DNA of 64,000 bases, from IMG/VR virus record IMGVR_UViG_3300047483_000428. One strand, written 5' to 3'. This DNA comes from a virus (Duplodnaviria > Heunggongvirae > Uroviricota > Caudoviricetes). The notes beneath the pieces are model-generated. The model made no database searches. It saw only the letters and a list, made by a program, of their open reading frames with translations, and was not told the DNA's origin. Position 1 is the first letter of the stretch; each line of letters opens with the position of its first letter. Positions 9,838 through 35,216 of this stretch are shown in pieces. A program made the position numbers and the translations under genes.

Positions 9838-9841
9838 TTCA

Positions 9842-14185: not shown

Positions 14186-14205
14186 GAAAATTCTAGCCAG
14201 AAGCA

Positions 14206-14278: not shown

Positions 14279-14353
14279 TACCTATCAACACCTCTACGAC
14301 GATAATTGAAGATAGTCTTCTAGCTAAGGTAGTCGCAGCTACCTATTCTATGT

Positions 14354-14430
14354 TGGTGGCGGGTGAGGGATTTGAACCCCCGATCTTCTGGTTATGAGCC
14401 AGACGAGATAGACCACTTCTCCAACCCGCA
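14354..14430 (-). tRNA. tRNA with CAT anticodon, copy 2 (position 1 unpaired with 72, initiator-like feature)
   Basis: TGCGGGT-TG-GAGA-AGTGGTCTA-TCTC-G-TCTGG-CTCATAA-CCAGA-AGATC-GGGGG-TTCAAAT-CCCTC-ACCCGCC-A-CCA. Confidence 0.7.
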
Positions 14431-14565
14431 TCAATTGGAGGTCCGTTAGCCGATATAGAGTGGAACCTATATATCCGACCTTGCCGCTTTCGCAGCAAAT
14501 ATTTCACATCATTTTCTCTAATGAGAAGAACAGAGAGGTATGACACGGACCAACATCTTACTGTA

Positions 14566-14655
14566 TGGCGGTGTATACAGGATTCGAACCTGTGGCAGTC
14601 TTTCAACTGCGATGGTTTAGCAAACCACTGGTTTCAGCCACTCACCCAATACACC
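14566..14655 (-). tRNA. tRNA-Ser (anticodon GCT), type II
   Basis: GGTGTAT...GTGGT-TTGCTAA-ACCAT plus an 18 nt variable arm CGCAGTTGAAAGACTGCC, then ACAGG-TTCGAAT-CCTGT-ATACACC-G-CCA. Confidence 0.75.
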
Positions 14656-14656
14656 A

Positions 14657-14851
14657 TTATGTTTTCAGTTGTAAGTTTTTCTCTTTTATGAAGTTAGCAA
14701 TATCGCTTGGCCTAACACGAACTTCCCAATCGTCAATTACATATCCGATTTCGCGTTTGTCAAATGCTCCAACATATCTAATTTTGACATGTGAACGTCC
14801 AACAGAATATTCAAATGTTTGACCATTTACTTCAATCTTACGATAACTCAT
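14657..14851 (-). CDS. hypothetical small protein embedded in tRNA island
   Basis: 64 aa with a strong AAGGAGA RBS 7 nt upstream of the ATG. Confidence 0.5.
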   Translation of the reverse strand: MSYRKIEVNGQTFEYSVGRSHVKIRYVGAFDKREIGYVIDDWEVRVRPSDIANFIKEKNLQLKT

Positions 14852-14894
14852 TTATTTCTCCTTACGGGTTGCTAGGCACAGTGCCTATGGAATA

Positions 14895-14969
14895 TGGCGA
14901 GAGAGGTAGGAATCGAACCCACGACACCGAGTTTTGGAGACTCGTGTTCTACCACTGAACTACACTCCC
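14895..14969 (-). tRNA. tRNA-Trp (anticodon CCA)
   Basis: GGGAGTG-TA-GTTC-AGTGGTA-GAAC-A-CGAGT-CTCCAAA-ACTCG-GTGTC-GTGGG-TTCGATT-CCTAC-CTCTCTC-G-CCA. Confidence 0.75.
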
Positions 14970-15067
14970 ATTTATAGTGGTATCAATCCCCTTACCCCGA
15001 TGATGCTATCTTTGGACAACAGTATCGCTACTGCTTTTCTATGATGGATAGATTGATTACATATTTT

Positions 15068-15143
15068 TGGTGAACGGAGTGGGAATCGAACCCACGACAA
15101 CAGAATTAAAAGTTCCGTGCTCTACCAACTGAGCTACCCGTCC
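15068..15143 (-). tRNA. tRNA-Lys (anticodon TTT)
   Basis: GGACGGG-TA-GCTC-AGTTGGTA-GAGC-A-CGGAA-CTTTTAA-TTCTG-...-GTGGG-TTCGATT-CCCAC-TCCGTTC-A-CCA. Confidence 0.75.
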
Positions 15144-15248
15144 GTAAACTTTACTGGTTCTCACGTCTTGAACCGAATGCTGTCTAGTATTGCGACTCCG
15201 ACTCCCCGCTAATTGCAGGATGGAAGTATCTAGATCAAACACTTATAT

Positions 15249-15325
15249 TGGCACTTCCGACAGGATTCGAACCTGTAACCTTTCGCTTCGTAGGCGAATG
15301 CTCTATCCAGTTGAGCTACGGAAGT
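15249..15325 (-). tRNA. tRNA-Arg (anticodon ACG)
   Basis: ACTTCCG-TA-GCTC-AACTGGATA-GAGC-A-TTCGC-CTACGAA-GCGAA-...-ACAGG-TTCGAAT-CCTGT-CGGAAGT-G-CCA. Confidence 0.75.
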
Positions 15326-15429
15326 ATAAACAGTCGGAGTTTCTTTTAACGTGCTGCCGAATCAGACACAGGTATTTTTGGTGAGTGTTTATCCATCGCA
15401 GGAGGCGCTTCCGCTAGTGGTGTACGGCC

Positions 15430-15470
15430 ACATCAGACCTTGGACATTATGTGGCCACATAATGTCTTGT
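15430..15470. other. stable hairpin in tRNA-island spacer
   Basis: Inverted repeat GGCCACAT...ATGTGGCC (8 bp arms) between tRNA genes; possible processing or termination signal. Confidence 0.3.
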
Positions 15471-15488
15471 CACTTCACACTCATAGTT

Positions 15489-15572
15489 TGGTGGGTGTCC
15501 TTGGAATCGAACCAAGCATAGGTTTCCCTGACGGAGTTACAGTCCGCTGCCTCACCTTGAGGCGGCACACCC
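15489..15572 (-). tRNA. tRNA-Tyr (anticodon GTA), type II, copy 1
   Basis: GGGTGTG...GCGGA-CTGTAAC-TCCGT plus a long variable arm, then CTTGG-TTCGATT-CCAAG-GACACCC-A-CCA. Confidence 0.6.
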
Positions 15573-15767
15573 AAATGTTATGGTGCTGGATTTTTTCGGC
15601 GTCAACACTATGAGCGAGGAAGATAATCCCTCATGGGACTCTATCGCTTATCAACTGCTGACGTTTTGACTTTACGTGGATTAGAATAAACCGCTTCCAC
15701 AACCAGCTTAGATGACCGACCTGTAATATGGTGACTTGACCATATCAGGGAGCATCGGTCGTAATAT

Positions 15768-15856
15768 TGGAGGACGTGGTGTGATTCGAACACACGGTAT
15801 AACTTTCGTTAGCCGGATTTGCAATCCGGTGCCTTGAACCGCTCGGCCACACGTCC
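15768..15856 (-). tRNA. type II (long variable arm, Leu/Ser-like D-arm) tRNA whose anticodon loop reads TTGCAAA (GCA, Cys-type)
   Basis: GGACGTG-TG-GCC-GAGCGGTTCAA-GGC-A-CCGGA-TTGCAAA-TCCGG plus a 17 nt variable arm, then GTGTG-TTCGAAT-CACAC-CACGTCC-T-CCA. Confidence 0.55.
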
Positions 15857-15913
15857 ATTTTTATCTCTTGCATTATGTATAACCTGATTCGCATCAAGAG
15901 TCAACAACTATTT

Positions 15914-16003
15914 TGGCGGATGGTGAGGGATTCGAACCCCCGCTACACTTTCATGTAGCCGCCCTTTCCAGGGGCGGATAATAAACCACTCTAACAACCA
16001 TCC
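15914..16003 (-). tRNA. tRNA-Ser (anticodon GGA), type II
   Basis: GGATGGT...CGCCC-CTGGAAA-GGGCG plus variable arm GCTACATGAAAGTGTAGC, then GGGGG-TTCGAAT-CCCTC-ACCATCC-G-CCA. Confidence 0.7.
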
Positions 16004-16019
16004 ATTGTTTATGGTATTT

Positions 16020-16099
16020 TGGTCCTGCGGGAAGGATTCGAACCTTGCTCTCTCTGATCCACAATCAGATGTGCTAACCGTTAACACTACTTCGCAGGA
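16020..16099 (-). tRNA. tRNA-His (anticodon GTG), tentative
   Basis: Anticodon arm TCTGA-TTGTGGA-TCAGA, T-loop TTCGAAT and a CCA end are clear. The D-arm is irregular and no G-1 is encoded. Confidence 0.5.
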
Positions 16100-16106
16100 T
16101 TATTTT

Positions 16107-16184
<78 letters not shown>

Positions 16185-16195
16185 ACATTTTAGTG

Positions 16196-16314
16196 TGGTG
16201 CGTATGGCTGGACTTGAACCAGCATGTCACCATGACTCATTCAACCACCGTTGAACTTATGGATTTGAACCACCTTACGTCCGTCGACGTGCGTCTACCA
16301 TTTCGCCACATACG
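16196..16314 (-). tRNA. interrupted tRNA-like gene (about 119 nt) with Leu-type 5' half and approx. 50 nt insert before T-arm
   Basis: 5' GCGTATG-TG-GCG-AAATGGTAGA-CGC-A has a D-arm identical to element 8827..8983. 3' GCTGG-TTCAAGT-CCAGC-CATACGC-A-CCA. The acceptor halves pair perfectly; the middle carries two small hairpins instead of an anticodon arm. Confidence 0.3.
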
Positions 16315-16322
16315 CAAATATT

Positions 16323-16397
16323 TGGTTGCCCCTACTGGATTTGAACCAGTGACCTATCCCTTATCAGGGGATTGCTCTACCACTGAGCTAAGAGGCA
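16323..16397 (-). tRNA. tRNA-Ile (anticodon GAT)
   Basis: TGCCTCT-TA-GCTC-AGTGGTA-GAGC-A-ATCCC-CTGATAA-GGGAT-AGGTC-ACTGG-TTCAAAT-CCAGT-AGGGGCA-A-CCA. Confidence 0.75.
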
Positions 16398-16504
16398 TCA
16401 TTATTTGGAAGATAGTATCAAGGGTCGCAAATTCCTTGTGTAGCCCACTTCAAAGCAAACTTAATTACCCAAGCTACTGCGATAGAATACTATCATCAAA
16501 ATAA

Positions 16505-16590
16505 TGGTGTGGGGGGCTGGATTCGAACCAGCGTTGCTTTTCAGCGCCTGATTTACAGTCAGGTGGTTTCAACCGCTCACCCACCCCCAC
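16505..16590 (-). tRNA. tRNA-Tyr (anticodon GTA), type II, copy 2
   Basis: GTGGGGG-TG-GGTG-...-CCTGA-CTGTAAA-TCAGG plus variable arm CGCTGAAAAGCAACG, then CTGG-TTCGAAT-CCAG-CCCCCAC-A-CCA. Confidence 0.65.
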
Positions 16591-17010
16591 AAGAACACAG
16601 TGACCCTAACCGTTCTAACCGCTGAACTACATCGCAGTTTGAAGCCGCAATGGAGGGATTTGAACCCCCGACCTGTGTAGTATGTGTATATTTTCGTAAT
16701 GAGTGCTCTATCTGGATTCGAACCCTCGGACAGCATCAGCCCTACACCTACCGATCTGCTGACCGGAAAATAGGAGATCATTACATAGCCCGCACAACCA
16801 CGAATCGAACGTGTTTTCTTGACAACTGTCTATATAGACCAACTACCAGGTAGCTACAACTGGCTGTTGTGCGATTGTTGATGAGGTTTACCATGAGTCA
16901 TTTTAACTCATCAACAATATTTCTGTTTTCAACTGTAACAACTGTTGGACTCGAACCAACCCCACCTTGTCCTGAAACTACTCGTAGTTATACTACTTTC
17001 GCCCAAGGTT
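16591..17010 (-). other. block of degenerate/non-canonical tRNA-like elements (at least 4 T-arm-like and several D-arm/acceptor-like segments)
   Basis: T-loop-like GGGTTCGAATCC, GGGGGTTCAAATCCC, CACGTTCGATTCGTG and TTGGTTCGAGTCCAA occur with fitting acceptor pairs (e.g. GCACAAC/GTTGTGC), but anticodon arms could not be folded by eye. This block may hold the tRNAs missing from the hand-parsed set (Ala, Asn, Asp, Gln, Glu, Gly, Pro). Confidence 0.25.
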
Positions 17011-17121
17011 TATGACACCCTTGCACCGTATTGTTACATGTGAAAACAGAAATTATTTCATTCTGTTTTTTCTAAATTGTCAAAGAGCAGTGAAGCATCG
17101 CTTCGTTTTCTTACATTGTCT

Positions 17122-17149
17122 TTATATACTGATTCGCTTATAAAGTCAA
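17122..17149 (-). promoter_or_regulatory. promoter-like motif copy at the head of the tRNA array
   Basis: Plus strand reads tttatatactgattcgcttataaagtcaa, oriented to transcribe into the tRNA block at lower coordinates. Confidence 0.45.
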
Positions 17150-17154
17150 CATCT

Positions 17155-17196
17155 TTTTTCAATAAAAAACCCTCCGAAGATTTTCATCTTGGAGGG
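17155..17196 (-). terminator. rho-independent terminator downstream of the LamG-like gene
   Basis: Minus-strand hairpin CCCTCCAAGATGAAAATCTTCGGAGGG followed by TTTTTTATTG. Confidence 0.6.
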
Positions 17197-17365
17197 TTCC
17201 TGTGTTCGTTAGAACTGTATGGATATGTAAGTTACATTCCCATACCAAGACCCTCGCAGCCGCTATACATAAAGCGACCACACCAAGTGCGGCGAATAAT
17301 CATCTTATGTGTAGAAGCGGTTTTCATTGAAAGTCTTAGTCCTTTGTTTGTTTCTATTCTTTATT

Positions 17366-17392
17366 TATAGCACTATCAGAGTGATTCGTCAA
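17366..17392 (-). promoter_or_regulatory. promoter-like motif, variant spacing (TTGACG-N17-TATAAA)
   Basis: Revcomp reads gcTTGACGaatcactctgatagtgcTATAAAtaa, sigma70-like with the CGAATCAC block immediately after the -35. Confidence 0.45.
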
Positions 17393-17436
17393 GCATTATC
17401 TTCTATTTTATTTATCTTTTTTACATTTTTTCTGTA

Positions 17437-18519
17437 TTATAGACCGTAACGTGTCTTATGAGCATTGAAGTTTTGAAGTAGTTCTGTTGCACTCAGTGCT
17501 CTGTTATAGAACCGTATTCCGCCTAACTTTCCATCTAACCAAGCAAAACTGTTATTGGTGGAACCAAACTGCAAAAACTCTGGACTATCAAAAAGGGCAG
17601 TTGTTGACAAATCACTTCTTGTGAATTTCGCAACTCCATTCCTGTAACCAGTAAGTGATGCCCCGCTTCTGACTACTGCAACATGATACCAAGTTCCAGT
17701 GACCATTGGTTCAGAGTTAGACCATAATCCATGATATAACCAGTTTGTGCCATCAAAACTATATCTGAATGTTGGGCGATTTACCGCGCCAAACGCATCT
17801 ATATATAAACCATAACTTCTGTTTGAGGACGCACCTTCTTTTTCAAAAATGGTTTGGTTATTCACAGTATGTGCATCAATATTTACCCATACTTCCCAAG
17901 TGAAGTCGTTTGCGCCAACATCCAAAATGTCAGCTTGTGTATCACAAATAGCAGTAGCAGTAACATCAAAATCTAACACTCCACCATTTGAACTCAAATA
18001 AGTTACATCAGTGAGCGTTCCGTTGTATGCATTTGGTGAAAGGTCGTTCAACACAGTTCCAGTGCCAGGATAACTGTTGCCATCGCCAGGTTCGTAGTAA
18101 AGCTGTAGGCCACGTGTAGTCACAATATCGGTAGTTTCAGAAATGACTTCATATGACGCTGTTATTTGTATATCATTGGCAATACTTGCAAAAGAAACAA
18201 TCGCATCAGATTCTTCAAGGTAAATGCCAATTTCTTTAGTCATCAAAGAAACAGAGGAATTTGCAGGAACAGACACAGTGCTAAAAATAGAGTATGTAAT
18301 GCCATTTCTTGAAATTTGAACTGTAACAAGAGCAGGATATAGTCTATCCACGTTAGTCGCTACTATTTGATTTACTTTTATTAGCTTACCAGAACCAGCC
18401 TCATTGAACAAAATGACTTTTGGTGTTAGTTGTAGAACGGAGGAAACGCTACTTTCTCCGTCTATATTTAGACTATTTGCTATATTTGGTGCAGTCATAT
18501 TATACCTCGTGATCAACAT
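17437..18519 (-). CDS. concanavalin-A-like lectin/glucanase (LamG-like) domain protein
   Basis: C-terminal 200 aa carry a jelly-roll signature (WYHVAVV..SG....YRNG, LDG.L..IR.YNRALS). The N-terminal 160 aa are a different Ser/Thr-rich beta region. Confidence 0.55.
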   Translation of the reverse strand: MLITRYNMTAPNIANSLNIDGESSVSSVLQLTPKVILFNEAGSGKLIKVNQIVATNVDRLYPALVTVQISRNGITYSIFSTVSVPANSSVSLMTKEIGIYLEESDAIVSFASIANDIQITASYEVISETTDIVTTRGLQLYYEPGDGNSYPGTGTVLNDLSPNAYNGTLTDVTYLSSNGGVLDFDVTATAICDTQADILDVGANDFTWEVWVNIDAHTVNNQTIFEKEGASSNRSYGLYIDAFGAVNRPTFRYSFDGTNWLYHGLWSNSEPMVTGTWYHVAVVRSGASLTGYRNGVAKFTRSDLSTTALFDSPEFLQFGSTNNSFAWLDGKLGGIRFYNRALSATELLQNFNAHKTRYGL

Positions 18520-18574
18520 GTATACTTGATTTGAAGTTTTTTGTCAAGAATTATATGCTGTTTTATTTATCTAT

Positions 18575-19702
18575 TTATATTACGATTACGCCAAGTGGCG
18601 GAAACCCATTGAACGCAACCGTTGAGTATGTAGTTGTGTATGCTCCACAGTTCTTGATAAAGATTCTATCACCAGACTTCAAGTCAGTTGGAAACTTTAC
18701 TTTGTTAGTTTCATACAAAACATCAGCACTATCACAGGTAGGACCAGCAAGAACACAGGACATTGTATCATTGCTACGGCAATCTGGTGTCACAAACTGA
18801 TACTTGATTGCTTCTTCTGCGGTTTCTGCAAGGCCACTGAACTTACCAATATCCAAGTAAACCCAACGAACTTCGTCACCTTCATTTTTAGTTGACACAA
18901 GTAGAACATTGGCAGAAATCATACCAACATTTCCAACCATACCACGGCCAGGTTCTGCCATGATATACTCAACAACGCCAAACTTATCCGAAATCATCTG
19001 TGTGAGTAGTTGGCAGTATGCCTCTGAATCGGTGATAGGAACGCCATAGAAGGCAGGAAATCCACCACCTATGTTGAGTAGCTTCATATCAAAGCCATTG
19101 CTTACAGCGTCTTTCCAGACCTCTGAGGCATATGTCAGAGTGTCATCCCACATTTCTGGATGACGAGTTTGCGACCCAACATGGAAGCTAATACCGATTG
19201 GTTTCAGCCCAACAGATTTAGCATACTTCATGAGAGGAATAGCTTTTGATTGTCCGCATCCAAACTTACGACTCAATGGCCATTCCGCTTGTGAGTTTGT
19301 AACTAATAGGCGAATGAATACTTCACTGTTCGGTGCGTATTTTGCTATCTTGTCTAGTTCTTCTTCTGCATCTGCTGCATAAAGTTTGATACCTTGTGCA
19401 TACGCATATTCAAGGTCTGCTGGACGCTTTACCGTGTTTCCAAAACTAATGTGTTCTGGTTTAGCGCCAGCATATAGACATATGCGTATTTCTTCTGCGC
19501 TTGCTGCGTCAAAACGGCATCCAAGTTTGACGAGTTTGTTTATGATTTCCTTTTGTGGATTTGCTTTCACGGCATAGTGAATATGGGCATTTCCAAGTCC
19601 AGATTTCAATTTTTTGTAGTTTTCTTCTACCTTCTCCACATCTAGAACGAGGGTTGGATAGTCGAAAACATTCGAGCGAATGTAATCTTCTAGTTTATCC
19701 AT
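18575..19702 (-). CDS. PLP-dependent decarboxylase, Orn/DAP/Arg decarboxylase family (fold-type III)
   Basis: Family-2 PLP attachment signature HYAVKANPQKEIINKLVKLG, the Gly-rich motif IGGGFP and a C-terminal beta-domain. 375 aa, similar in size to CANSDC/NspC or short ODC. Confidence 0.75.
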   Translation of the reverse strand: MDKLEDYIRSNVFDYPTLVLDVEKVEENYKKLKSGLGNAHIHYAVKANPQKEIINKLVKLGCRFDAASAEEIRICLYAGAKPEHISFGNTVKRPADLEYAYAQGIKLYAADAEEELDKIAKYAPNSEVFIRLLVTNSQAEWPLSRKFGCGQSKAIPLMKYAKSVGLKPIGISFHVGSQTRHPEMWDDTLTYASEVWKDAVSNGFDMKLLNIGGGFPAFYGVPITDSEAYCQLLTQMISDKFGVVEYIMAEPGRGMVGNVGMISANVLLVSTKNEGDEVRWVYLDIGKFSGLAETAEEAIKYQFVTPDCRSNDTMSCVLAGPTCDSADVLYETNKVKFPTDLKSGDRIFIKNCGAYTTTYSTVAFNGFPPLGVIVI

Positions 19703-19747
19703 AGTGTTGTGACCCTTTCGTAAAACAACACAGTTATTTATAAGATA

Positions 19748-19837
19748 TGGCGGAAAGTGTGGGATTCGAACCCACGAGAGGTTTCACCCCCTGCTCGTTT
19801 AGTAGACGAGTGCCATCGACCGCTCGGCCAACTTTCC
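19748..19837 (-). tRNA. type II tRNA with anticodon loop CTACTAA (reads as ACT; atypical)
   Basis: GGAAAGT-TG-GCC-GAGCGGTCGAT-GGC-A-CTCGT-CTACTAA-ACGAG plus a long variable arm, then GTGGG-TTCGAAT-CCCAC-ACTTTCC-G-CCA. Ser/Leu-type architecture. Confidence 0.5.
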
Positions 19838-19840
19838 TTT

Positions 19841-20551
19841 TTATTTTCGTATCACTACCGTATATGAACCAAGTTCCGCATCTGGGTATGATGTCAGCAT
19901 GGGAACAATTTCAACATTCTTATACTTATCAAAAAAACTTTTGTCATAGAATGTAAGTGGAGTAGTTTTGTATTTCTCAGACAATTGCTCAAGTGTTAGA
20001 TTTTGTCTGTTTGCTTGCTTTTCCTTGAAAAGATTCTCTGTTTCTTTATCTTTCACATCGGATATCACAACGCCATATTTTGAGCAACGTAGCATTTCTT
20101 GAGTGACGTAATCAGCATCATCATATGATAGATATTGAAAAACTGAATTTGATATGAACCAATCAACTTTATTATCAGTTATCGGTATTTTTTTATCGGA
20201 AACAAAAAAGTGATGTGCTTGCATAGGAAACAGTATCATGCATTGGTCTATAAGTTGTTTGCTTATATCAATTCCATATACATCATTTCCATATGTGTGG
20301 TGAAGGTAATGTAATAATGCAGCGTTTCCGCATCCAAACTCAGCTATTGACGAATTTGTTTCAACAAAATCCATCATGTATTCTACATACGATTTGAATG
20401 TGTTTTTGTCGCAATCAAAAATGGCCTTGTGCAATTCAAAAGATGAATCAAATACCGATTTGTCAGTTGATACTAGTATTTTGTTTGTTTCTAAAACCCA
20501 TGAAAGATTTGGATTGTTAAATATTTTATTCCATGTTTTTACTTCGGTCAT
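19841..20551 (-). CDS. class I SAM-dependent methyltransferase
   Basis: Motif I IAEFGCGNAALLHYL and motif II VYGIDIS. Confidence 0.6.
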   Translation of the reverse strand: MTEVKTWNKIFNNPNLSWVLETNKILVSTDKSVFDSSFELHKAIFDCDKNTFKSYVEYMMDFVETNSSIAEFGCGNAALLHYLHHTYGNDVYGIDISKQLIDQCMILFPMQAHHFFVSDKKIPITDNKVDWFISNSVFQYLSYDDADYVTQEMLRCSKYGVVISDVKDKETENLFKEKQANRQNLTLEQLSEKYKTTPLTFYDKSFFDKYKNVEIVPMLTSYPDAELGSYTVVIRK

Positions 20552-20777
20552 TCGGAATTTCTTTTCTTACTTTCCAATAAACCCAACTCTCCATACAATG
20601 GTGGCTATCGTTAAATACCAAGTTTATAAACCATACGATGTTTGGTTTGTTAGTTCGTTTCCAATGCCAATTTCTTGCACTAAAAGTTTGATTGCTTTCT
20701 CCACCAATCACTACATTGAAGAGAATACTAAATGCGGTGCCGCATCTTTTTATATAGTTTGTTAATACATTTCTCAT
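20526..20777 (-). CDS. hypothetical protein
   Basis: 83 aa, Trp-rich ORF upstream of the methyltransferase. Confidence 0.3.
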   Translation of the reverse strand: MRNVLTNYIKRCGTAFSILFNVVIGGESNQTFSARNWHWKRTNKPNIVWFINLVFNDSHHCMESWVYWKVRKEIPNDRSKNME

Positions 20778-20954
20778 AAATGTATTTATATAAAACCCCC
20801 AACCAGATGCTTATGCGCGGGAACACGACATTTTACGGTATACCAGCATCATTCTCTGTATCAGAGAGGAACAGATTTTAAAGATTGTTAAGGATAAGTC
20901 CCATCCACAGCCGCATGGGTTAACTTACGTGGCAAATCCAGAGGGTTTTATATT

Positions 20955-21575
20955 TCAAATTTTACCATTCAACTCGTTAAACAAACACAAAGCGTATTCA
21001 TCGTGAGCATCTTTATTTGGATGTGATCCATCCAATGCAGGAGGATATTTTAATCTAATACTATCAAAATCAGATTTCAAAAATTCAAAACTCATCCAAT
21101 TTCCAACACTTTTTGAGGTAATATTAGAAATAGATAAAAGTGCGTGAAAGTTATTTACATCTTTTGACCATAAATATCGGTGTATATGGTCCGCTCTTAA
21201 ATTCAAATCTATTAAACCATCATATTCAGAATATAAGTTTTCATAATACCATTCATACTCTGAATATCTTGGTAGTATAAAAACATCATCCGAGTTTTCT
21301 CTAAAATATGTTGTTCTTGTAATAAAAGACCAATTTACTATAACAATATCATCTTGATGATAACCAAAGTCAACTACAGTTTTCCATATTTTTTTATTAC
21401 TAGCACCAGGAATACTTTTGTTTACTACTTCTTGTATTCCTAGTTTTTCAGCGAGAGTATTTGGCCAACCCATCTTACTTGGATACGATGTTATATATGG
21501 ATATTCATTGGTATGACAATCCTCTAACGAGTGTCCATATGTGTAACTGCAACCAAAAACAACTAATCTACTCAT
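20955..21575 (-). CDS. SGNH/GDSL-like hydrolase (tentative)
   Basis: N-terminal block VVFGCSYTYG is block I-like, a GASN block follows, and the C-terminal DGSHPNKDAH fits the DxxH catalytic pair. Confidence 0.45.
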   Translation of the reverse strand: MSRLVVFGCSYTYGHSLEDCHTNEYPYITSYPSKMGWPNTLAEKLGIQEVVNKSIPGASNKKIWKTVVDFGYHQDDIVIVNWSFITRTTYFRENSDDVFILPRYSEYEWYYENLYSEYDGLIDLNLRADHIHRYLWSKDVNNFHALLSISNITSKSVGNWMSFEFLKSDFDSIRLKYPPALDGSHPNKDAHDEYALCLFNELNGKI

Positions 21576-21586
21576 TTTTTAACCTC

Positions 21587-21683
21587 TGGTGTTGGAGAGG
21601 GATTTGAACCCTGCTTTGAACAATTTGTTTCATCCGCCTGCCCGAATATATGAAACAACATCAGCACACCATGCCAGTCCAAC
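21587..21683 (-). tRNA. tRNA-like element with canonical T-arm/acceptor but a long central hairpin instead of D/anticodon arms
   Basis: 3' AGGG-TTCAAAT-CCCT-CTCCAAC-A-CCA and 5' GTTGGAC pair; the centre is a 9 bp hairpin TTGTTTCAT...ATGAAACAA. Confidence 0.25.
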
Positions 21684-21893
21684 ATAATAAATCGTATGCA
21701 TCTTTATCCCTTCTACCCAGTCCACTGTAGGTGCGCCGTAGCTGGCCACACAGCTTCAACCTAGTCCAGTCTTCAACACTCACGTGCTACGATACACGGC
21801 ATTACTCTGCTTCGGGCTTTTTTTGCGGTTGCTACATCGCTTCTCATCATATGGGTTACCGCCCATACTATCTGTTGCTACACAGAACGTCTA

Positions 21894-21978
21894 TGGTGCC
21901 CGTAGAGGGACTTGAACCCCCACTCCGTTAGGAACCTGATTTTGAGTCAGGCGCGTCTACCAATTTCACCATACGGGC
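21894..21978 (-). tRNA. tRNA-Leu (anticodon CAA), type II
   Basis: GCCCGTA-TG-GTG-AAATTGGTAGA-CGC-G-CCTGA-CTCAAAA-TCAGG plus variable arm TTCCTAACGGAGTG, then GGGGG-TTCAAGT-CCCTC-TACGGGC-A-CCA. Confidence 0.75.
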
Positions 21979-21982
21979 AAAT

Positions 21983-22198
21983 TTATAAATCTTTTGTATT
22001 ATCTATCTCTCTACCAAGAGAAATATTTTTTTGTGCTCTTACTTTGTTGTTTGGCCAAGTCCAACACTGTCCATCATCATCACCAAAACAAACCCACATC
22101 AAGTTATGTTCTGGTCCATAATCTATCAAAACATGCGCCAATGCTGGACCTCTTGGCGTATAAAGAGGTATCGGTGGATTTAGCTGTAACATATTCAT
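21983..22198 (-). CDS. hypothetical protein
   Basis: 71 aa ORF. Confidence 0.35.
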   Translation of the reverse strand: MNMLQLNPPIPLYTPRGPALAHVLIDYGPEHNLMWVCFGDDDGQCWTWPNNKVRAQKNISLGREIDNTKDL

Positions 22199-22220
22199 GT
22201 AAGTTCTCCCCTCACACTAT

Positions 22221-22847
22221 TTATGCTACTGACGCCTCTTTCACAACTTTTGCAACTACTTTATACAAACCAGGATTTACAACTAACGCTTTTGGCATCA
22301 ACTCATGACGAATAAAGTTACGCATATACTTTGTATCGCTGTTACTTTTATCTTCAATCCATTCAATGCTTTTTCGTTCACACCAATCAACAAACTCATA
22401 CTTACGGTTCATACGAAATGGACGAATAACATTCATGTTGCGATATGGAATAACTTTACCAAAACCGTTCAATGACGACCAAATCCAAGTTTCAGTGCAA
22501 TCATCCAAGTGATGACAAGTTACAACTGGCACATCCATACTATAGAAGATTTTGTATCGCTCGTTTCTCCAATGTTCTTCCTGAGACGTATTTTTGGGAG
22601 GGTTTTCATCAGAAATACATGTCTTGATGAGACGTTCACCAAATACAGAATCAAGAAACTTTTCTGCTTCTCTACTTGTTTCAGTTCCGTGATTTACAAA
22701 TAGGGGACGGACTGTATGATTGCGACTTAGGAAGTCAACAACTGCCATACTATCAACGCCGCCACTACAAGCGACAATCACTTCACGTGGGATTTTACCT
22801 TGGATTTTGATCATATTCGAAACAGTCTTTTCCTGTTTGGTGTTCAA
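22221..22847 (-). CDS. PP-loop ATP pyrophosphatase (TilS-like tRNA(Ile)-lysidine synthetase or QueC-like)
   Basis: SGGVDS PP-loop in VIVACSGGVDSMAVVDFL followed by FVNHG. Context of four CAT-anticodon tRNAs favours TilS-like. Confidence 0.6.
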   Translation of the reverse strand: MNTKQEKTVSNMIKIQGKIPREVIVACSGGVDSMAVVDFLSRNHTVRPLFVNHGTETSREAEKFLDSVFGERLIKTCISDENPPKNTSQEEHWRNERYKIFYSMDVPVVTCHHLDDCTETWIWSSLNGFGKVIPYRNMNVIRPFRMNRKYEFVDWCERKSIEWIEDKSNSDTKYMRNFIRHELMPKALVVNPGLYKVVAKVVKEASVA

Positions 22848-23046
22848 ATGTTAGAAGGCCGAGTCGTGGAGACTTCTTATTCGCACATACACCATAATCA
22901 AATCCAAGTTCCCCGTCAAGAGGCAAAAACCATTTACATCCACAACTACAGTCTGGGTAATCTTGATTGTCGGCCCATCGTTTGACTTCTCCACCATAAT
23001 CAGTGTAATCAGATGGAAGGACTTTTATAAACGACATATCAATCAT
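22795..23046 (-). CDS. hypothetical Cys-containing small protein
   Basis: 83 aa with a CSCGCKW motif. Confidence 0.35.
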   Translation of the reverse strand: MIDMSFIKVLPSDYTDYGGEVKRWADNQDYPDCSCGCKWFLPLDGELGFDYGVCANKKSPRLGLLTFEHQTGKDCFEYDQNPR

Positions 23047-23064
23047 ATTCAGACCTTTTTATTT

Positions 23065-23141
23065 TGGTAGTCCCCCTCGGACTTGAACCGAGATATCCGT
23101 TCTTATGAGGAACGCTCATTCACCAATTATGATAGAGGACC
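23065..23141 (-). tRNA. tRNA with CAT anticodon, copy 4
   Basis: GGTCCTC-TA-TCAT-AATTGGTGA-ATGA-G-CGTTC-CTCATAA-GAACG-GATAT-CTCGG-TTCAAGT-CCGAG-GGGGACT-A-CCA. Confidence 0.7.
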
Positions 23142-23255
23142 GTAATTCTGTTCGGTTTGTCGCAGACTCCGAAAAACTGCTTTCAGTAACCTAGACGCAG
23201 AGCATCATCCCTGTAGGACCATTGTCCCGCTACCGCCATCGCATTACCTTCTAAA

Positions 23256-23332
23256 TGGTGCCCCCGGTGGGATTCGAACCCACACTGTAGAGATTTTAAG
23301 TCTCCTGCCTCCTGCCTTTGGGCTACGAGGGC
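23256..23332 (-). tRNA. type I tRNA with anticodon TAA (Leu-type anticodon on a short-variable-arm body)
   Basis: GCCCTCG-TA-GCC-...-GGC-A-GGAGA-CTTAAAA-TCTCT-ACAGT-GTGGG-TTCGAAT-CCCAC-CGGGGGC-A-CCA. Confidence 0.55.
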
Positions 23333-23452
23333 ATTTTATTACTTGTTCCGACACCAGCCCCCAAACCCGCCGTGTCAGTGACTACTTCCATATCCCAAAG
23401 AGAACAGAAAGGAAAAGGTTCTCAACGGTATACTAAGTATCTTTCCTAATAT

Positions 23453-23529
23453 TGGCGATTCCGGCAGGACTCGAACCTGCAACCCACAGCTTAGAAGGCT
23501 GTTGCTCTATCCAGTTGAGCTACGGAACC
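23453..23529 (-). tRNA. tRNA-Arg (anticodon TCT)
   Basis: GGTTCCG-TA-GCTC-AACTGGATA-GAGC-A-ACAGC-CTTCTAA-GCTGT-GGGTT-GCAGG-TTCGAGT-CCTGC-CGGAATC-G-CCA. Confidence 0.75.
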
Positions 23530-23542
23530 ATTATGTAGGTAT

Positions 23543-23692
23543 TTATCAAATTGCTTTCAATTCAGCACGAGACACGCCGTTGTGTCCACGAATAGCATGA
23601 AAGAAAGACAAAGCAGCAGCACGAGTATCAAACACTTTTTCACCAGCATGACGACCGTAGCGGCTCCAAACGACTTTGAACATTTTGTTCAT
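23543..23692 (-). CDS. hypothetical small protein (49 aa)
   Basis: Hand translation gives MNKMFKVVWSRYGRHAGEKVFDTRAAALSFFHAIRGHNGVSRAELKAI. It has an AGAGAGGG RBS and a promoter motif at 23705..23732. Confidence 0.3.
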
Positions 23693-26722: not shown

Positions 26723-27973
26723 TCAAGCGGCGGCAACCGCTTGAGTCCGAGCACGTTTCATGCCTTCTTTGATTTTTTCAACTTTCTTTTCACCATTCGG
26801 GAAAACATCGTTGAACTTCACACTCTTGAACGCTTCCCACTTGGTCAGCAGAACGTCCAGTTGGTCAACAGAGTTGTTTTCACTACCCAGACGACCACGC
26901 TCATCGCACATACCAACCCGATGCAGAACATTCACAGTTTCAGGATCATTCAGCGAACCCATTTCATCAAACATCTTGACAAAAGTTTTCGGGTTCAGAT
27001 CATCCAGTTTGTGCATATTCATGTGAAACCGAGTAGCTTTCATCGCACGGTCACGCATCTTAGCAGGAACAGTCAGACGGTCAGCAAAGGCTTCCACAAC
27101 GGGAACACCCTTCACATCATGCCCGAAGTGCTTAGGAAAGTCTTCTTTCCGAGTCAGACCTTTACCAAAGTCATGAACCAGTGCAGCAAACCGAGTTTCC
27201 AGATCAAACCCAAACTTGGCAGCTTGAGTCAGAACCAGCATGGTATGCTCAAAGGCATTACCTTCGGGGTGCCAACGGCGACTTTCCATCGCAGAACACA
27301 GTGCATACACTTCGGGAAACAGAACATGCAGAGCATCACATTCCAGCAGCGTATCAAAGAACAGGCGAGGATGGGGTTCCATCAGAGCACGGCTCAGTTC
27401 TTTCCACACCCGTTCAGCAGTCAGTTCGTTCAGAACGCCCTTCTTGGCCATCGTATGAACCAGTTCACGAGTTTCCTTGGCAACAGTCCATTCCGCACCA
27501 AAACGAGCACGGAACCGAGCCAGACGCAGAACCCGAACAGGGTCTTCAACGAAAGCATTAGAAGTATGACGCAGAACTTTGGCATTCAGATCATCTTGAC
27601 CACCAAAGGGGTCAAACAGAGCAAAACTACCTTCATCGCCTTCAACAAAGAACTCAGTGTCTTCCATGCGTTGCAGAGACATGCTGTTGATGGTCAGGTC
27701 ACGTCGACCCAGGTCTTCTTCCAGCGTCACATCAGTGCCGAACTCAGAAGTGAAACCCAGATACCCAGTGCCAGTCTTTTTTTCACGACGAGCCAGAGCA
27801 AATTCTTCACCAGTTTCGGGGTGCAGAAACACAGGAAAATCAGCGCCAACTTTTTCAAAGCCAGCAGCCAGCATTTCTTCGACCGTGGAACCGACCACGA
27901 CAAAATCTTTATCTTTCGGCTCCATGCCCATCAGCATATCGCGAACAGCACCGCCGACCAGAAATGTTTGCAT
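26723..27973 (-). CDS. cca: CCA-adding tRNA nucleotidyltransferase (class II polymerase-beta head plus HD domain)
   Basis: N-terminal GGAVRD...DxD head motif (LVGGAVRDMLMG..KDKDFVV) and HD-domain signature ALVHDFGKG. Start placed at the internal MQTFLV (GAAAGGAA RBS), because a promoter motif and terminator lie inside the longer ORF-track frame. Confidence 0.8.
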   Translation of the reverse strand: MQTFLVGGAVRDMLMGMEPKDKDFVVVGSTVEEMLAAGFEKVGADFPVFLHPETGEEFALARREKKTGTGYLGFTSEFGTDVTLEEDLGRRDLTINSMSLQRMEDTEFFVEGDEGSFALFDPFGGQDDLNAKVLRHTSNAFVEDPVRVLRLARFRARFGAEWTVAKETRELVHTMAKKGVLNELTAERVWKELSRALMEPHPRLFFDTLLECDALHVLFPEVYALCSAMESRRWHPEGNAFEHTMLVLTQAAKFGFDLETRFAALVHDFGKGLTRKEDFPKHFGHDVKGVPVVEAFADRLTVPAKMRDRAMKATRFHMNMHKLDDLNPKTFVKMFDEMGSLNDPETVNVLHRVGMCDERGRLGSENNSVDQLDVLLTKWEAFKSVKFNDVFPNGEKKVEKIKEGMKRARTQAVAAA

Positions 27974-28002
27974 TGGTGATTCCTTTCTCATTACTGTTAC
28001 AC

Positions 28003-28029
28003 CATACAGTATGATTCTTACCTTGTCAA
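28003..28029 (-). promoter_or_regulatory. promoter-like motif copy upstream of the CCA-adding enzyme gene
   Basis: Plus strand reads catacagtatgattcttaccttgtcaa. Confidence 0.45.
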
Positions 28030-28060
28030 ATAAAAAAGAGGGTTTCCCCTCTTTATTTTT
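28030..28060. terminator. bidirectional rho-independent terminator
   Basis: Hairpin AAGAGGGTTTCCCCTCTT flanked by an A-run and a T-run. Confidence 0.6.
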
Positions 28061-28253
28061 GTTCCACAACTCGTATTTCTTGTTCGGCAATCATATACCA
28101 ATCAGGTGCGATTGCTTCTGGTGGCTCATTGAATGAGTTGATATGGTCACGATACTTGATGGCTTCTTCTATCGTATCAAACAAAGCATATTCTCGTTTT
28201 TGTCCCCAACCACGTTCTGATTCAATAGTGCAGACTTCGTATTTTACTTTCAT
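28053..28253 (-). CDS. hypothetical protein
   Basis: 66 aa; variant promoter motif at 28278..28310. Confidence 0.4.
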   Translation of the reverse strand: MKVKYEVCTIESERGWGQKREYALFDTIEEAIKYRDHINSFNEPPEAIAPDWYMIAEQEIRVVEQK

Positions 28254-28346: not shown

Positions 28347-28892
28347 TTATCGTAGTTTGAGTGGTTCTTCGACACCAGTCTTGAACGCTTCTTCAGTTCG
28401 GGCATTGGTCACAATCTTGTAGTCGTCAAGATTAATTTTTGGATATCCAGCGACTCGCATCCAAGTGCCTTGCCAGAATGAACCAAGGGCAGTTTCATAT
28501 ACACGTTTCTGATCAATCAACCGAGTTTGGGCAGTTGCAAAGTCAATACGACCCGCTTCAATCATGCGTTGTAGTTGAGTGTATACAGTGCTGTCAATGG
28601 TTGGGTTTTGTTCCTGAATGAACTGGAACATAGCTTTTGAACCTTCTTCTCCATAACGAGCATCAAGGGCAGCGGTTACAACCGCAGTCAAATCGTCTCG
28701 TTGCATTGCGGGGATTTGAGCGGCTTCCGCAATACGATTACTGTATTGAGCAAGAATGTTTTTGTTGTCTTCAAATGTTGCGACAATCTGATTTTCAAGT
28801 CGGTTACCAGTGTTATACGCGGACACATAACTCATGAACACAAGGCCAACCAGACCGACAACAAAGACAAGGGCAGCGATTAGGTATTTCAT
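28347..28892 (-). CDS. LemA family membrane protein
   Basis: N-terminal TM followed by YNTGNRLENQIVATFEDNKNILAQYSNR...AQIPAMQRDDL, matching the LemA architecture. Confidence 0.6.
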   Translation of the reverse strand: MKYLIAALVFVVGLVGLVFMSYVSAYNTGNRLENQIVATFEDNKNILAQYSNRIAEAAQIPAMQRDDLTAVVTAALDARYGEEGSKAMFQFIQEQNPTIDSTVYTQLQRMIEAGRIDFATAQTRLIDQKRVYETALGSFWQGTWMRVAGYPKINLDDYKIVTNARTEEAFKTGVEEPLKLR

Positions 28893-28902
28893 CTTTTTCT
28901 CC

Positions 28903-30012
28903 TTAGACGATTTTATATTTGTTCATCACATAGGTGATTGCAGGGGTTACAATTAGAAGCACGATGAGTGCCAAGACAAATGCCCAAGTAGGCGGAACAA
29001 TGTCGTTGGACAGGTATTCAAAGTCGTCCATTGATTGAAGTTTGTAGTCGCTTCGAATCACATTCCCAATATAGGTATTGATCGTATCAATGTCAAGAAC
29101 TTTCGCATCATAAATTGCATCACGGATTTTCACGTTTACAATGCTATCTTCACTCCAACTACGCACATCCACCCAAGAAATATTGTTGTCTGCCATACCA
29201 ATCACAACGATTACGTCATTGATATTATGGGCATCCCAAGATTGTGCCAGTTGTTCAGCAAAGTCTTGATTCTTACTGGTTACTACAATGATTACGTTTG
29301 CGCCAGTTTTCACAATATCAGAGTTTAGAATAGAAAGTTTCTTGTTCCATTCTGCTTTCATTGTTTCTGGCATAGAATAATCAACAGTAATCACACGGTC
29401 AGAACGATAGAAGTCATAGATGGCAGGATAGGAGATAGAAGGCAGTTCTTCTGGTTTCAGATGTTTGTTGAAGAGACTTGTAGACGCACCACGAATATAG
29501 TTTGTATACGATACTTGACCAGATACAGGGTCACCAACATTCGCTTCTGCAACGCGAGGCGGAATGTTTACGCCTTGGGCATCAACACGAGAAATTTGAT
29601 ACGTGTCAATCGTTGTTTCAATAAAATACTTTTGTTCCCAAGAATATTTTGAACGATATTGAGTTTTGTATTTTGGAGTGCAAGTGCGTTTATTATTGAC
29701 GGTTGTGCAAGTTTGCCCATTCCTTACCGTTCTTGTTTGTTGATTGGTGCAGAAGCTATCTGGCCAATCGCTCCAATATTGATTGCAAGACTTTCTTTCT
29801 TTGACGAGTTCAGTTACTACGCCATTTACGAATTTTACATCACTTGTCTGTGACCCAATGCCAGCAAGAAATACCAGAAAAATGATAAGACTTGTTGCTA
29901 CAAATTGAATAGCAACTTCACCCCAAGTGATGTTCATGTGTAGGAAGGTCTTTGTGATTCCAATCCATATCACAACAGGGATAAGGAATAGAAAGGCATA
30001 GTATGCGGTCAT
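28903..30012 (-). CDS. membrane protein (N-terminal 2 TM, large extracytoplasmic domain, C-terminal TM); likely LemA partner
   Basis: TM segments at 1-50 and a C-terminal FVLALIVLLIVTPAITYV; co-operonic with LemA (11 nt gap). Confidence 0.5.
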   Translation of the reverse strand: MTAYYAFLFLIPVVIWIGITKTFLHMNITWGEVAIQFVATSLIIFLVFLAGIGSQTSDVKFVNGVVTELVKERKSCNQYWSDWPDSFCTNQQTRTVRNGQTCTTVNNKRTCTPKYKTQYRSKYSWEQKYFIETTIDTYQISRVDAQGVNIPPRVAEANVGDPVSGQVSYTNYIRGASTSLFNKHLKPEELPSISYPAIYDFYRSDRVITVDYSMPETMKAEWNKKLSILNSDIVKTGANVIIVVTSKNQDFAEQLAQSWDAHNINDVIVVIGMADNNISWVDVRSWSEDSIVNVKIRDAIYDAKVLDIDTINTYIGNVIRSDYKLQSMDDFEYLSNDIVPPTWAFVLALIVLLIVTPAITYVMNKYKIV

Positions 30013-30043
30013 GTGATTTCCTATCGGTTATTTCGAATCCATA

Positions 30044-30070
30044 CATATACTATGCAGATTCATTTGTCAA
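30044..30070 (-). promoter_or_regulatory. promoter-like motif copy
   Basis: Plus strand reads acatatactatgcagattcatttgtcaa, upstream of the 28903..30012 operon. Confidence 0.5.
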
Positions 30071-30619
30071 GTGGATTCATACAGATACTTACTCTGTAAG
30101 TATCAAATTATGATGGACACTCATTCCTTGCTATCGCTTCGTCATTCATATCCATCATAATTTTTTAGTTATGATATTATTTTCTTATATCATTTCCAGA
30201 GCCAAGATACACTTTGCCTTCAGGCTGGCAAGCGTGTATCTATGGGGAAATCTTTTCCGTCACACTGATACTTCATACAGAACAACCTTGTTACGTCAGG
30301 TTATGGTGGTCACGCGGTGCCATTTTACGTTCTAACTTATTATGACGCAGACTTGCTATAGCTGTATGAATAACATTAGCAGTCTTGCGGGTTCCCTAAG
30401 TGTCATGGATTGCCCGCTCATTTTTCAAGTGGTCATCTTGATTACATAAACGAACTCTGGCATCGGTAAAATGCCAGAGCACACATTGTCACTATATCTA
30501 TTCGCATAGTGGTTTATTACTACCGAAAACGTAACAGAGGATACATCCTCATTGTCTGTGTTATAAGTTTTACTACCTTTATATGACAGGTATACACCTG
30601 ACTTTATAAGAGTATCATA

Positions 30620-30656
30620 GACTCTATGATTCGGTCAACATACTACTTTGTCAAAG
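30620..30656 (-). promoter_or_regulatory. promoter-like motif, variant, at the far end of the 620 bp gap
   Basis: Plus strand reads ctctatgattcggtcaacatactactttgtcaaag. Confidence 0.35.
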
Positions 30657-30895
30657 TATGCTTTTAGTTCAGTGAATCCACCAATGTGATTTCCATCTAC
30701 CCATATTTGAGGATATGTTCTTGGAGTGTAATTTACTGCCGCACATTCTGCAAGCATGTTTTCTTTCGCTCCATCCACAAACTCAACATTCAGTTCTTCA
30801 TACTGAACACCACGAATTTGCAATAGAGTTTTTGCCTGAATGCAATAACTGCATCCATTCTTGGTATATATTTTTGCTTTCATTTTTTCATCCAT
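30635..30895 (-). CDS. glutaredoxin (NrdH/GrxA-like)
   Basis: CxxC active site KNGCSYCIQAK in a thioredoxin-fold-sized (86 aa) protein, with a conserved TYPQIWVDGNHIGGF. Confidence 0.75.
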   Translation of the reverse strand: MDEKMKAKIYTKNGCSYCIQAKTLLQIRGVQYEELNVEFVDGAKENMLAECAAVNYTPRTYPQIWVDGNHIGGFTELKAYFDKVVC

Positions 30896-33748: not shown

Positions 33749-34037
33749 ATTTTCCTCATATTGACAAATTTAAGAAGAGAAAGTTTTTGATTTGGGTGAG
33801 CATTTCTCGTTGCGGCTTCACCGATTAATAATATTAAAATAACGATGACGGTTACATGACACTTACTCCAAGTGGAGGTTGAAGGTTAGTTTTTTGTTTT
33901 ACGAGCAGCATTCCCATTATTCGGCGCTCATCATACTAAATTAGTCTCATATATCTATAAGTCAGTCATAACATTAAGATGTAACCGTCATCGTCGCATT
34001 TTATTCTCCACGGTTAAGTTCTTGTTTCTGATACATT

Positions 34038-34067
34038 ATTTATAGCAGATTCGTATATCGTTGTCAA
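34038..34067 (-). promoter_or_regulatory. promoter-like motif copy
   Basis: Plus strand reads ttatttatagcagattcgtatatcgttgtcaa. Confidence 0.45.
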
Positions 34068-34667: not shown

Positions 34668-35216
34668 TTATTTTGCGAAAATTTTCAAAATTTCGAGTTC
34701 TATATAATCTTTGTTTCGTTCAATATAAGCAATATCACCAATTGAACATCCTAATAGTTCTTTTCCAACTGGCGATCTATGACTTATAACGCCCTCAGAC
34801 GGATTGCTGTCCGTCTCTCCAAGGATTGTGTATGTTATAATTTTGTCAGTCGATAAGTTTTTCACAGTCACACTCAGCCCAACTTCGACCTTACTATATT
34901 CCCCCTTTGCTTTTGTTGGTATGATAGTATATGTTTCTGCTATGAATTGGAGTTTTGCAATCTCCATATCCAATCTCATCATTTCTTCGAGTGCCATAGA
35001 AAATTCTTCATTTTCTTCTACGCCCCCGTTTTCTCTGGCATCTTTAATTTGCTCAGAAATTAGTGGTTTCTTTTTGGAAAGAATTTGAATTTTTTCCAAA
35101 ATTTGTTTTCGTCCCTGTTCGGTAATAATGTCCCCACTCAATTCTTTGTATTCCTTGTTATTATTATTGTTGTGGTTGTATTTATCGTAAACAACAAATG
35201 ATAGTGCATTATTCAT
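34668..35216 (-). CDS. GreA/GreB-family domain protein
   Basis: C-terminal FKBP-like Gre signature ISHRSPVGKELLGCSIGDIAYIE plus an N-terminal coiled-coil region. Confidence 0.55.
   Translation of the reverse strand: MNNALSFVVYDKYNHNNNNNKEYKELSGDIITEQGRKQILEKIQILSKKKPLISEQIKDARENGGVEENEEFSMALEEMMRLDMEIAKLQFIAETYTIIPTKAKGEYSKVEVGLSVTVKNLSTDKIITYTILGETDSNPSEGVISHRSPVGKELLGCSIGDIAYIERNKDYIELEILKIFAK

Follow-up and report, generated by a model that had tools for sequence, protein, structure and literature searches.

The question raised by this locus is what, if anything, a large phage encodes in a 622-nt interval (30013-30634) that carries no plausible ORF on either strand. The interval lies in a 64,000-nt stretch of DNA that was analysed as a whole (the window), which is part of a 185.6-kb JGI metagenome contig and whose phage context is seen from an endolysin, an RNA ligase, and 23 tRNAs. 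All genes around the interval have the minus strand as their coding strand, and the longest ORF within it, of 54 aa, lies on the opposite strand. The initial annotation had described a gap of ~620 bp at this place as the largest gene-free interval of the genome; the gap is real, and its rank holds within the window if tRNA genes are counted as genes, in that a greedy ORF map combined with ARAGORN predictions shows no larger interval without protein or tRNA genes, while the sole larger stretch without protein genes (22848-23581) contains tRNAs. The evidence set out below leads to a model in which the interval is probably the gene for a highly structured non-coding RNA of ~527 nt, encoded on the minus strand, which would act in trans as a free molecule.

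The glutaredoxin gene precedes the interval on the minus strand and the genes for a 369-aa membrane-type protein and a 181-aa protein follow it (Table 1), with a cytidylyltransferase-like gene and hypothetical genes being the other neighbors of the RNA. The name "LemA", given earlier to the 181-aa protein and the downstream operon, was not reproduced for that protein by Pfam at E≤0.001; PHROGs lists it as a virion structural protein (phrog_1383). A tRNA island with 23 tRNA genes (8092-23529, ARAGORN) lies 6.5 kb away from the RNA element, a gene for a CCA-adding enzyme (PolyA_pol + HD, 26723-28090) lies 2 kb from it in the window, and an RNA ligase gene is located at 48542-49600. A GreA/GreB-like gene (34668-35216) shares an early-type region with the RNA ligase, the CCA-adding enzyme, the tRNA island, and the RNA, and the three protein genes named here point to a phage-encoded RNA maintenance and transcription module. 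As regards the tRNA predictions themselves, four ARAGORN calls are without an overlapping Rfam tRNA match (15489-15572, 15914-16003, 21588-21684, and 23065-23141), two Rfam tRNAs were missed by ARAGORN (12267-12337 and 14206-14278), and unusual anticodons are found in the ARAGORN calls Tyr-ATA (21588-21684) and Ser-ACT (19748-19837). The unmatched or odd-anticodon calls may be atypical tRNAs or false calls.

Table 1. Positions of the RNA element, its parts, and its flanking features in the window.
Feature	Position	Strand	Remarks
Glutaredoxin gene	30895..30635	minus	Pfam PF00462
Promoter-like site for the RNA	30609..30638	minus	hexamers conserved
Structured non-coding RNA, ~527 nt	30078..30604	minus	putative ends, from conservation limits and flanking promoter-like sites
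H1, 5' terminal hairpin GUCAGG...CCUGUC	30585..30602	minus	stem invariant, loop variable
Domain I, H4-H10	30418..30561	minus	double compensatory changes in H4, H5, H8, and H10
H8 (CTCTGGCAT/ATGCCAGAG), 9-10 bp	30480..30454	minus	covarying
Domain II, H11-H19, most conserved core	30270..30417	minus	H11-H15 covary
H11 (GCGGG/CCCGC)	30417..30387	minus	compensatory changes in homologues
Domain III, H20-H23	30166..30258	minus	contains H22
H22, 37-nt hairpin	30240..30206	minus	stem never varies
Domain IV	30084..30162	minus	H24/H25 and H26
H24/H25, long hairpin	30162..30106	minus	H24 covaries
H26, 3' hairpin	30104..30084	minus	no U-tract after H26
Promoter-like site for the 369-aa gene, CTTGACAAATGAATC...TATATG	30040..30071	minus	outside the RNA; conservation drops before the site
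369-aa membrane-type protein gene	30012..28903	minus	downstream of the interval
181-aa protein gene	28892..28347	minus	after the 369-aa gene

Homologues of the element were obtained by way of a large protein collection and a subsequent look-up of the contigs of the relatives. Seven distinct full-length versions are available, i.e., the window and the loci L012/L014/L015, L016/L017, L018, L034/L036, L039, and L040, along with two partial copies (L033 and L041). They come from uncultured large phages, with L016/L017 originating from a 356-kb contig and L034/L036 from a 332-kb contig, and in every version a gene-free interval of 618-641 nt is positioned directly 3' of the glutaredoxin gene.

In an alignment of all seven sequences (A3; a further alignment, A1, contains six) the element shows 90% mean column identity with long invariant runs, and it is the best-conserved segment in every comparison with the flanking genes. 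Its identity to the window is 84-92%, the corresponding values being 76-88% for glutaredoxin, 69-88% for a 104-aa gene, 79-89% for the cytidylyltransferase-like gene, and 74-86% for an IMPDH-like gene. Third-codon positions of the glutaredoxin gene are 55-72% identical and its four-fold degenerate sites 44-63%, and since these third positions are far less identical than the element, the element must be under strong purifying selection. At the level of nucleotides, purifying selection on the element exceeds that on the neighboring coding genes.

Conservation above that of nearby real genes is the opposite of what would be expected from a pseudogene, which bears on the reading of the interval as a decayed or misread protein-coding gene, or as a source of small peptides. 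Short ORFs of 20-55 aa are present in the interval; in addition, the gap is replaced by two coding genes in the closest IMG/VR relatives by the 369-aa protein (~50% amino acid identity), and in L001-L005 these are a 257-aa and a ~100-aa gene immediately upstream of the 369-aa homologue. However, tblastx of the gap against L001-L005 gave matches only where the flank of the query overlaps the start of the 369-aa gene, and L001-L008 and L019-L021, whose 369-aa protein is ~50-56% identical, have neither a comparable gap nor any similarity to the interval by DNA or tblastx comparison. The ORFs themselves are not conserved, the longest one differing in position in each homologue, and stop codons are plentiful in every frame of every homologue, with 7-26 per forward frame across homologues and 10-19 in the window copy. 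Indels are mostly of 1-2 nt rather than multiples of three, and the variable columns are spread over the three phases as 59/51/46 without 3-nt or codon periodicity. A protein-coding gene was rejected on account of the lack of a conserved ORF, the 1-2 nt indels, and the lack of a third-position bias, and the decayed, misread, or peptide-coding variants of this reading are considered extremely unlikely. The proviso of the initial annotation that relatives might carry a coding gene here does not hold for the close relatives, which lack a conserved ORF, and the interval as such is missing from more distant ones (53% amino acid identity). At 4280-4809 of L039 a 95-aa ORF is present on the opposite strand, antisense to the RNA; it is seen in L039 only and, being broken by stops in all other homologues, is probably spurious.

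The check proposed in the initial annotation, RNA folding with alignments to relatives, was carried out with RNAalifold on the seven sequences and gave a consensus fold with 167 pairs in 26 helices. Standard pairs occupy 97.8% of its cells in A3, as compared with 34-41% in slid controls, in which the 3' partners are displaced by 1-3 columns. Compensatory double changes are seen at 20 pairs (39 cells), whereas column shuffles (n = 500) gave 9.0±1.7 pairs and 11.8±2.5 cells, with a count of 20 pairs reached in 0/500, and the slid controls gave 1-3 compensatory pairs. The generic test for a structured non-coding RNA, compensatory substitutions beyond controls, is thus positive. At least one double change is found in each of 11 helices (H4, H5, H8, H10-H15, H24, and H26), and more than 20 helices are maintained, these 11 by compensatory double substitutions.

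The three hairpins that had been picked out from the single sequence are all present in the consensus, as H22, H8, and H11, with H8 and H11 carrying compensatory changes and H22 being invariant. H8 exists in four versions, all of them fully paired (CUCUGGCAU/AUGCCAGAG, CUCAGGCAU/AUGCCUGAG, CUCACGUAU/AUACGUGAG, and CUCGGACAU/AUGUCCGAG), and H11-H12 in two concerted ones, GCGGG...CCCGC and GCAAG...CUUGC, to which GUAGG...CCUAC is added in L039. Four compensatory pairs with several states are found in H24, and H26 shows an exchange of A-U to G-C in L039 and, in alignment A2 only, also in L033. Within Domain II, H11 and H12 are followed by H13-H15 and then by the multi-stem junction H16-H19, while in Domain III a run of 46 nt shows no change among the six sequences of A1, and L039 differs from it at a few positions, mainly in the loop of H22. 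With only seven sequences from one narrow clade, covariation is uninformative for H22 and for the nearly invariant H16-H19. The closing helix H2 (5' AUAUA/3' UGUAU) and the upper part of H7 are weak, showing mismatches in L039 and L012, and for that reason are not relied on. A long-range pairing CUGUCAUAU/GUGUGACGG from the first RNAalifold run is broken in L018 and was replaced by the 5' hairpin H1. Further covarying columns were looked for as signs of pseudoknots or tertiary contacts, but the hundreds of pairs obtained are spurious and arise, in a set of seven sequences, from lineage-specific changes.

The "alleles" of H11-H12 (30417-30387) differ at ~10 positions, all of which are compensated. 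The allele GCGGGCAAUCCAUGACACUUAGGGAACCCGC is carried by the window and L018, and with two loop changes by L040, and the allele GCAAGCUCUUCACGACACUUCGGAAACUUGC by L012, L016, and L034, with one loop position differing in L016. This distribution departs from overall similarity, by which the window is closest to L016, and suggests either recombination between phages or parallel change. Two internal repeats are also seen: CCACUUGAAAAAUGA in the RNA (30418-30432, formed by the 3' strands of H10 and H9) is nearly identical to CCACTTGACAAATGA of the downstream promoter (30060-30074; repeat D1), and the H17/H16 strand (30281..30272) recurs as UCUGUAUGAA at the 3' end of the RNA (repeat D8). They could be due to chance, to an old duplication, or to alternative pairing.

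The fold is not neutral with respect to strand. The window copy has a folding energy of -158.6 kcal/mol with z = -7.1 relative to dinucleotide shuffles, the reverse complement having z = -6.1, and the consensus energy is -132.4 kcal/mol for the gene strand versus -114.1 kcal/mol for the reverse complement. G·U cells number 97 and A·C cells 4, a count that is biased by the prediction of the fold on the gene strand. The G·U pairs and the folding energy point to the minus (gene) strand as that of the RNA, and the suggestion of a structured RNA is in this way strongly supported by conservation, covariation, and strand asymmetry together.

These same data bear on another proposal of the initial annotation, a replication or packaging cis element, which would work at the DNA level as an origin or packaging site whose hairpins form in DNA. 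Conserved non-coding DNA of this length, rich in inverted repeats, might be expected of such an element in a phage, and promoters are used by T4-type origins. On the other hand, the 97 G·U cells would turn into A·C mismatches if the other strand were folded, so that the pairing is strand-specific, and the compensatory changes span ~500 nt rather than a few protein-binding sites. The element also has no iterons or direct-repeat arrays, no GC-skew switch, and no pronounced AT-rich unwinding block. A DNA-level role is therefore regarded as very improbable.

The homologous loci further show that the element does not depend on the identity of the downstream gene. Three different genes are found in that position: the 369-aa gene, a 66-aa gene that is in turn followed by the CCA-adding enzyme gene (L034/L036, with the start of the latter gene lying in L034 ~330 nt past the RNA), and an 83-aa gene (L039). 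Neither the 369-aa nor the 181-aa gene is present in L034/L036 or L039, yet the element is intact there and its 3' boundary unchanged. The 369-aa/181-aa pair (28347-30012) behaves as a movable cassette, L034/L036 and L039 representing the locus without it. In distant T4-like phages (L019-L021), the pair is found beside homologues of uvsY, uvsW, and gp19, the element being absent.

In the reading first put forward, the interval would be a long 5' leader or riboregulator, riboswitch-like or acting by antitermination, of the 369-aa/"LemA" operon. In four of the seven lineages, as in the window, this operon does follow the element, and H8 followed by UUCGUUUAUGU was flagged as terminator-like. The tail of this supposed terminator, however, itself pairs as the conserved helix H9, the 369-aa gene, where present, has a promoter-like site of its own that comes after the element, and the 369-aa/181-aa pair occurs in distant phages that lack the element. 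Since the two genes are absent from L034/L036 and L039 while the element persists with the same 3' boundary, the element is not the leader of the LemA operon, and such a leader role is judged very unlikely.

Both boundaries of the element are sharp and the same in every genomic context. At the 5' side, the -35 hexamer TTGACC (30638..30633) of the sigma-70-like promoter site overlaps the TGA stop codon of glutaredoxin (30637..30635), and an extended -10, TGnTACTCT, is located at 30617..30609, with GATACT at 30616..30611 as an alternative; a consensus scan reports TTGACC-16-GATACT. The hexamers are kept in all eight homologues that cover the site and the spacer is variable, which, judged from the aligned copies, is the conservation pattern of a promoter. 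Transcription would then start at ~30604-30601, just before the 5' hairpin. At the 3' side, conservation ends past H26 and UGUAU(G) at ~30078, after which a short variable stretch leads to the promoter-like site of the next gene.

Sites of the type CTTGACA-N7-CGAATC-N4-TATAnn recur as a promoter family upstream of minus-strand genes in the window, and the initial annotation had placed copies of it at both ends of the gap. Promoter-like sites are indeed present at each end, but the one at the 3' end (CTTGACAAATGAATC..., 30071..~30040) is a loose member of the family and the spacing of the one at the 5' end is off-family, its CGAATC following immediately after TTGAC. In L039 a perfect family promoter is found at the place equivalent to the 3' site, before a different gene. 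Minus-strand copies of the family, with their unusual conserved spacer element, occur, e.g., at 60569, 50207, 34068, 25050, 23743, 17393, 1894, and 1268.

A second conserved non-coding element (33749-34063, minus strand) is positioned between a Hydrolase_2-like gene and a 90-aa gene (alignment A5). It begins with a perfect copy of the promoter family, CTTGACA..CGAATCTGCTATAAAT, followed by ~250 conserved nt in which UGAGCGCCGAAUAAUGGGAAUGCUGCUCG is an invariant block and GACGAUGACGGUUACAU and AUGUAACCGUCAUCG are complementary over a long range. Rfam gives no match to it at the gathering threshold, and a further structured RNA or a leader may be encoded there.

The position of the main element relative to the gene upstream has to be considered as well. 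The main rival of a free RNA is a long structured 3' UTR, or a processing or stability element, that serves the glutaredoxin operon in cis. In each of the seven homologues the element comes immediately after the glutaredoxin gene with no terminator in between, and the promoter-like site overlaps the stop codon, all of which fits such an arrangement. A 3' UTR stabilizer of 527 nt that is more conserved than the coding sequence it serves would nevertheless be out of proportion, the presence of more than 20 helices and of long invariant unpaired stretches speaks against this role, and the retention of the promoter hexamers with a variable spacer argues for transcription independent of glutaredoxin. 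A cis-acting 3' UTR is accordingly held to be unlikely.

In the preferred model of a free RNA, the element would be transcribed early from its own putative promoter, with read-through from the glutaredoxin operon as a probable second source. An intrinsic terminator is lacking, as no U-tract comes after the element, and the 3' end would probably be made by processing, as happens to tRNAs and stable RNAs in early transcripts of the T4 type. The RNA would then act in trans as a folded molecule and not as an mRNA element. Its size, ornateness, and phage origin, the lack of a dedicated partner gene, and the nearness to tRNA and RNA-repair genes make an RNA-only or RNA-dominated scaffold or binding platform the most likely form of action. 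By analogy, the product would most likely be a free and stable RNA that is produced early in infection and serves in trans as a scaffold or for binding, with catalysis by the RNA being possible.

The next question is whether the RNA belongs to a family already described. Rfam 15 at the gathering threshold reported only tRNAs in the whole window, and cmscan at E≤10 with permissive filters returned only scattered, mutually inconsistent chance matches to snoRNA and miRNA models for the window, L039, and L012 copies; the Rfam/Infernal scan that had been called for thus recognized no known family in the gap, where ARAGORN also found no tRNA or tmRNA. Among the GenBank phages (50,697 records), blastn with 11-nt words gave nothing at 1e-5 and at E≤1 only a 47-nt AU-rich chance match in Lak phages. 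Four patterns taken from invariant blocks gave nothing in IMG/VR or a chance 19-mer in an unrelated phage family, while invariant-block patterns retrieved from the JGI metagenome collection only two contigs already among the homologues and from the GTDB genomes one chance match in a high-GC bacterial MAG. IMG/VR likewise yielded nothing when the search was anchored on glutaredoxin. A covariance model built on the Domain II core (R1) scores 145-181 bits on all seven sequences and nothing elsewhere in 225 kb comprising the window and related loci, so that there is no paralogue in the window and none in the distant relatives. Literature searches returned no description of such an RNA. In an IMG/VR-wide survey of phage structured RNAs the motifs average 67 nt, and the clade of the present RNA is absent from the pattern scans of IMG/VR, the collection used in that survey.

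The element might still be a diverged member of a known family (ROOL, GOLLD, OLE, RNase P RNA, tmRNA, a group I or II intron, or HEARO/omega RNA), given that its size and its phage and tRNA context resemble those of ROOL and GOLLD and that very divergent members can escape covariance models. Against this, none of these families was among the matches of cmscan at E≤10 to three divergent copies, ARAGORN calls no tRNA or tmRNA, and no nuclease, transposase, or reverse-transcriptase gene adjoins the element in the window or in the neighborhoods of the homologues. RNase P RNA, tmRNA, 6S RNA, group I/II introns, and HEARO-omega RNAs have no Rfam match here, and no IscB/TnpB-type gene is adjoining. 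Membership in a described family is hence judged quite unlikely, and the absence of matches to the ROOL and GOLLD covariance models leads to the RNA being filed as a new class of the same general kind and not as a member.

To our knowledge, structured RNAs of more than 500 nt other than rRNA, RNase P RNA, and introns are very rare in bacteria and phages, the main examples being OLE, GOLLD, HEARO, and ROOL. The element described here shares their hallmarks with its ~527 nt, more than 20 helices, and conservation above that of neighboring protein genes. Each large structured RNA found so far opened new biology or brought structural surprises, the latest being RNA-only nanocages (PMC12286853). 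A bolder reading, given about an even chance, makes the element the founding member of a new class of ornate phage RNAs of more than 500 nt, unrelated to ROOL, GOLLD, OLE, and HEARO. Its conservation, close to the level of rRNA, would then stem from an activity of the RNA itself, such as that of a ribozyme or of an RNA-only particle that assembles itself, which would serve infection by giant aquatic phages and possibly act on tRNAs or on the translation or RNA-repair machinery encoded beside it. Irrespective of that, a well-delimited new target is available to structural and phage biologists, with its sequence, boundaries, a seven-sequence alignment, and a covariation-tested secondary structure, and a role as regulatory spacer is not to be assumed for the gene-free gaps of giant phages.

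Among the known systems, the stable RNAs of phage T4 offer a model, by analogy, for the formation of the 3' end. Species 1 and 2 (rnaC/rnaD) are stable non-coding RNAs of unknown function that are encoded with tRNAs in the early region and are released by processing and not by termination. They are ~120-140 nt long and lie inside the tRNA cluster, whereas the present element, at about four times that size, is located 6.5 kb away from the cluster and comes with a promoter-like site of its own. OLE RNA is similar in its size of ~600 nt and in combining extreme sequence conservation with an ornate structure, its function likewise not being established. Encoded in the chromosomes of Bacillota extremophiles, OLE has dedicated partner proteins (OapA and others) and a membrane localization; the element here differs in having no oapA-type genes nearby and no Rfam match to OLE.

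GOLLD is closer in several respects, as a very large and ornate RNA that is known from aquatic metagenomes and whose genes lie near tRNAs in phages or prophages. It usually exceeds 800 nt and has a conserved 3' half and a variable 5' half, whereas the present element is conserved throughout and most highly in its center (30417..30166), and no match to the Rfam GOLLD model is found at the gathering threshold or at E≤10. ROOL hosts are mostly Bacillota and the rumen is their typical setting, while the element comes from uncultured aquatic large phages and does not match the Rfam ROOL model even at E≤10. ROOL (Rumen-Originating, Ornate, Large) is a multi-helix, ornate RNA of ~580-660 nt with no known protein partner (PMC12286853), and like it the element is of comparable length (~527 nt), has more than 20 helices, is phage-encoded, and lies near a tRNA island and a CCA-adding enzyme gene with no dedicated neighbor gene. 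The genomic context of ROOL, in phages or prophages near tRNA islands, is thus shared by the element, a feature that is insufficient for membership. ROOL and GOLLD, large ornate RNAs of phages and prophages that often lie near tRNA islands and whose function is unknown, form RNA-only nanocages (PMC12286853), and they would be the closest analogues of the element by resemblance only. The element is in this way one more instance of the unexplained association of large ornate RNAs with the tRNA islands of phages.
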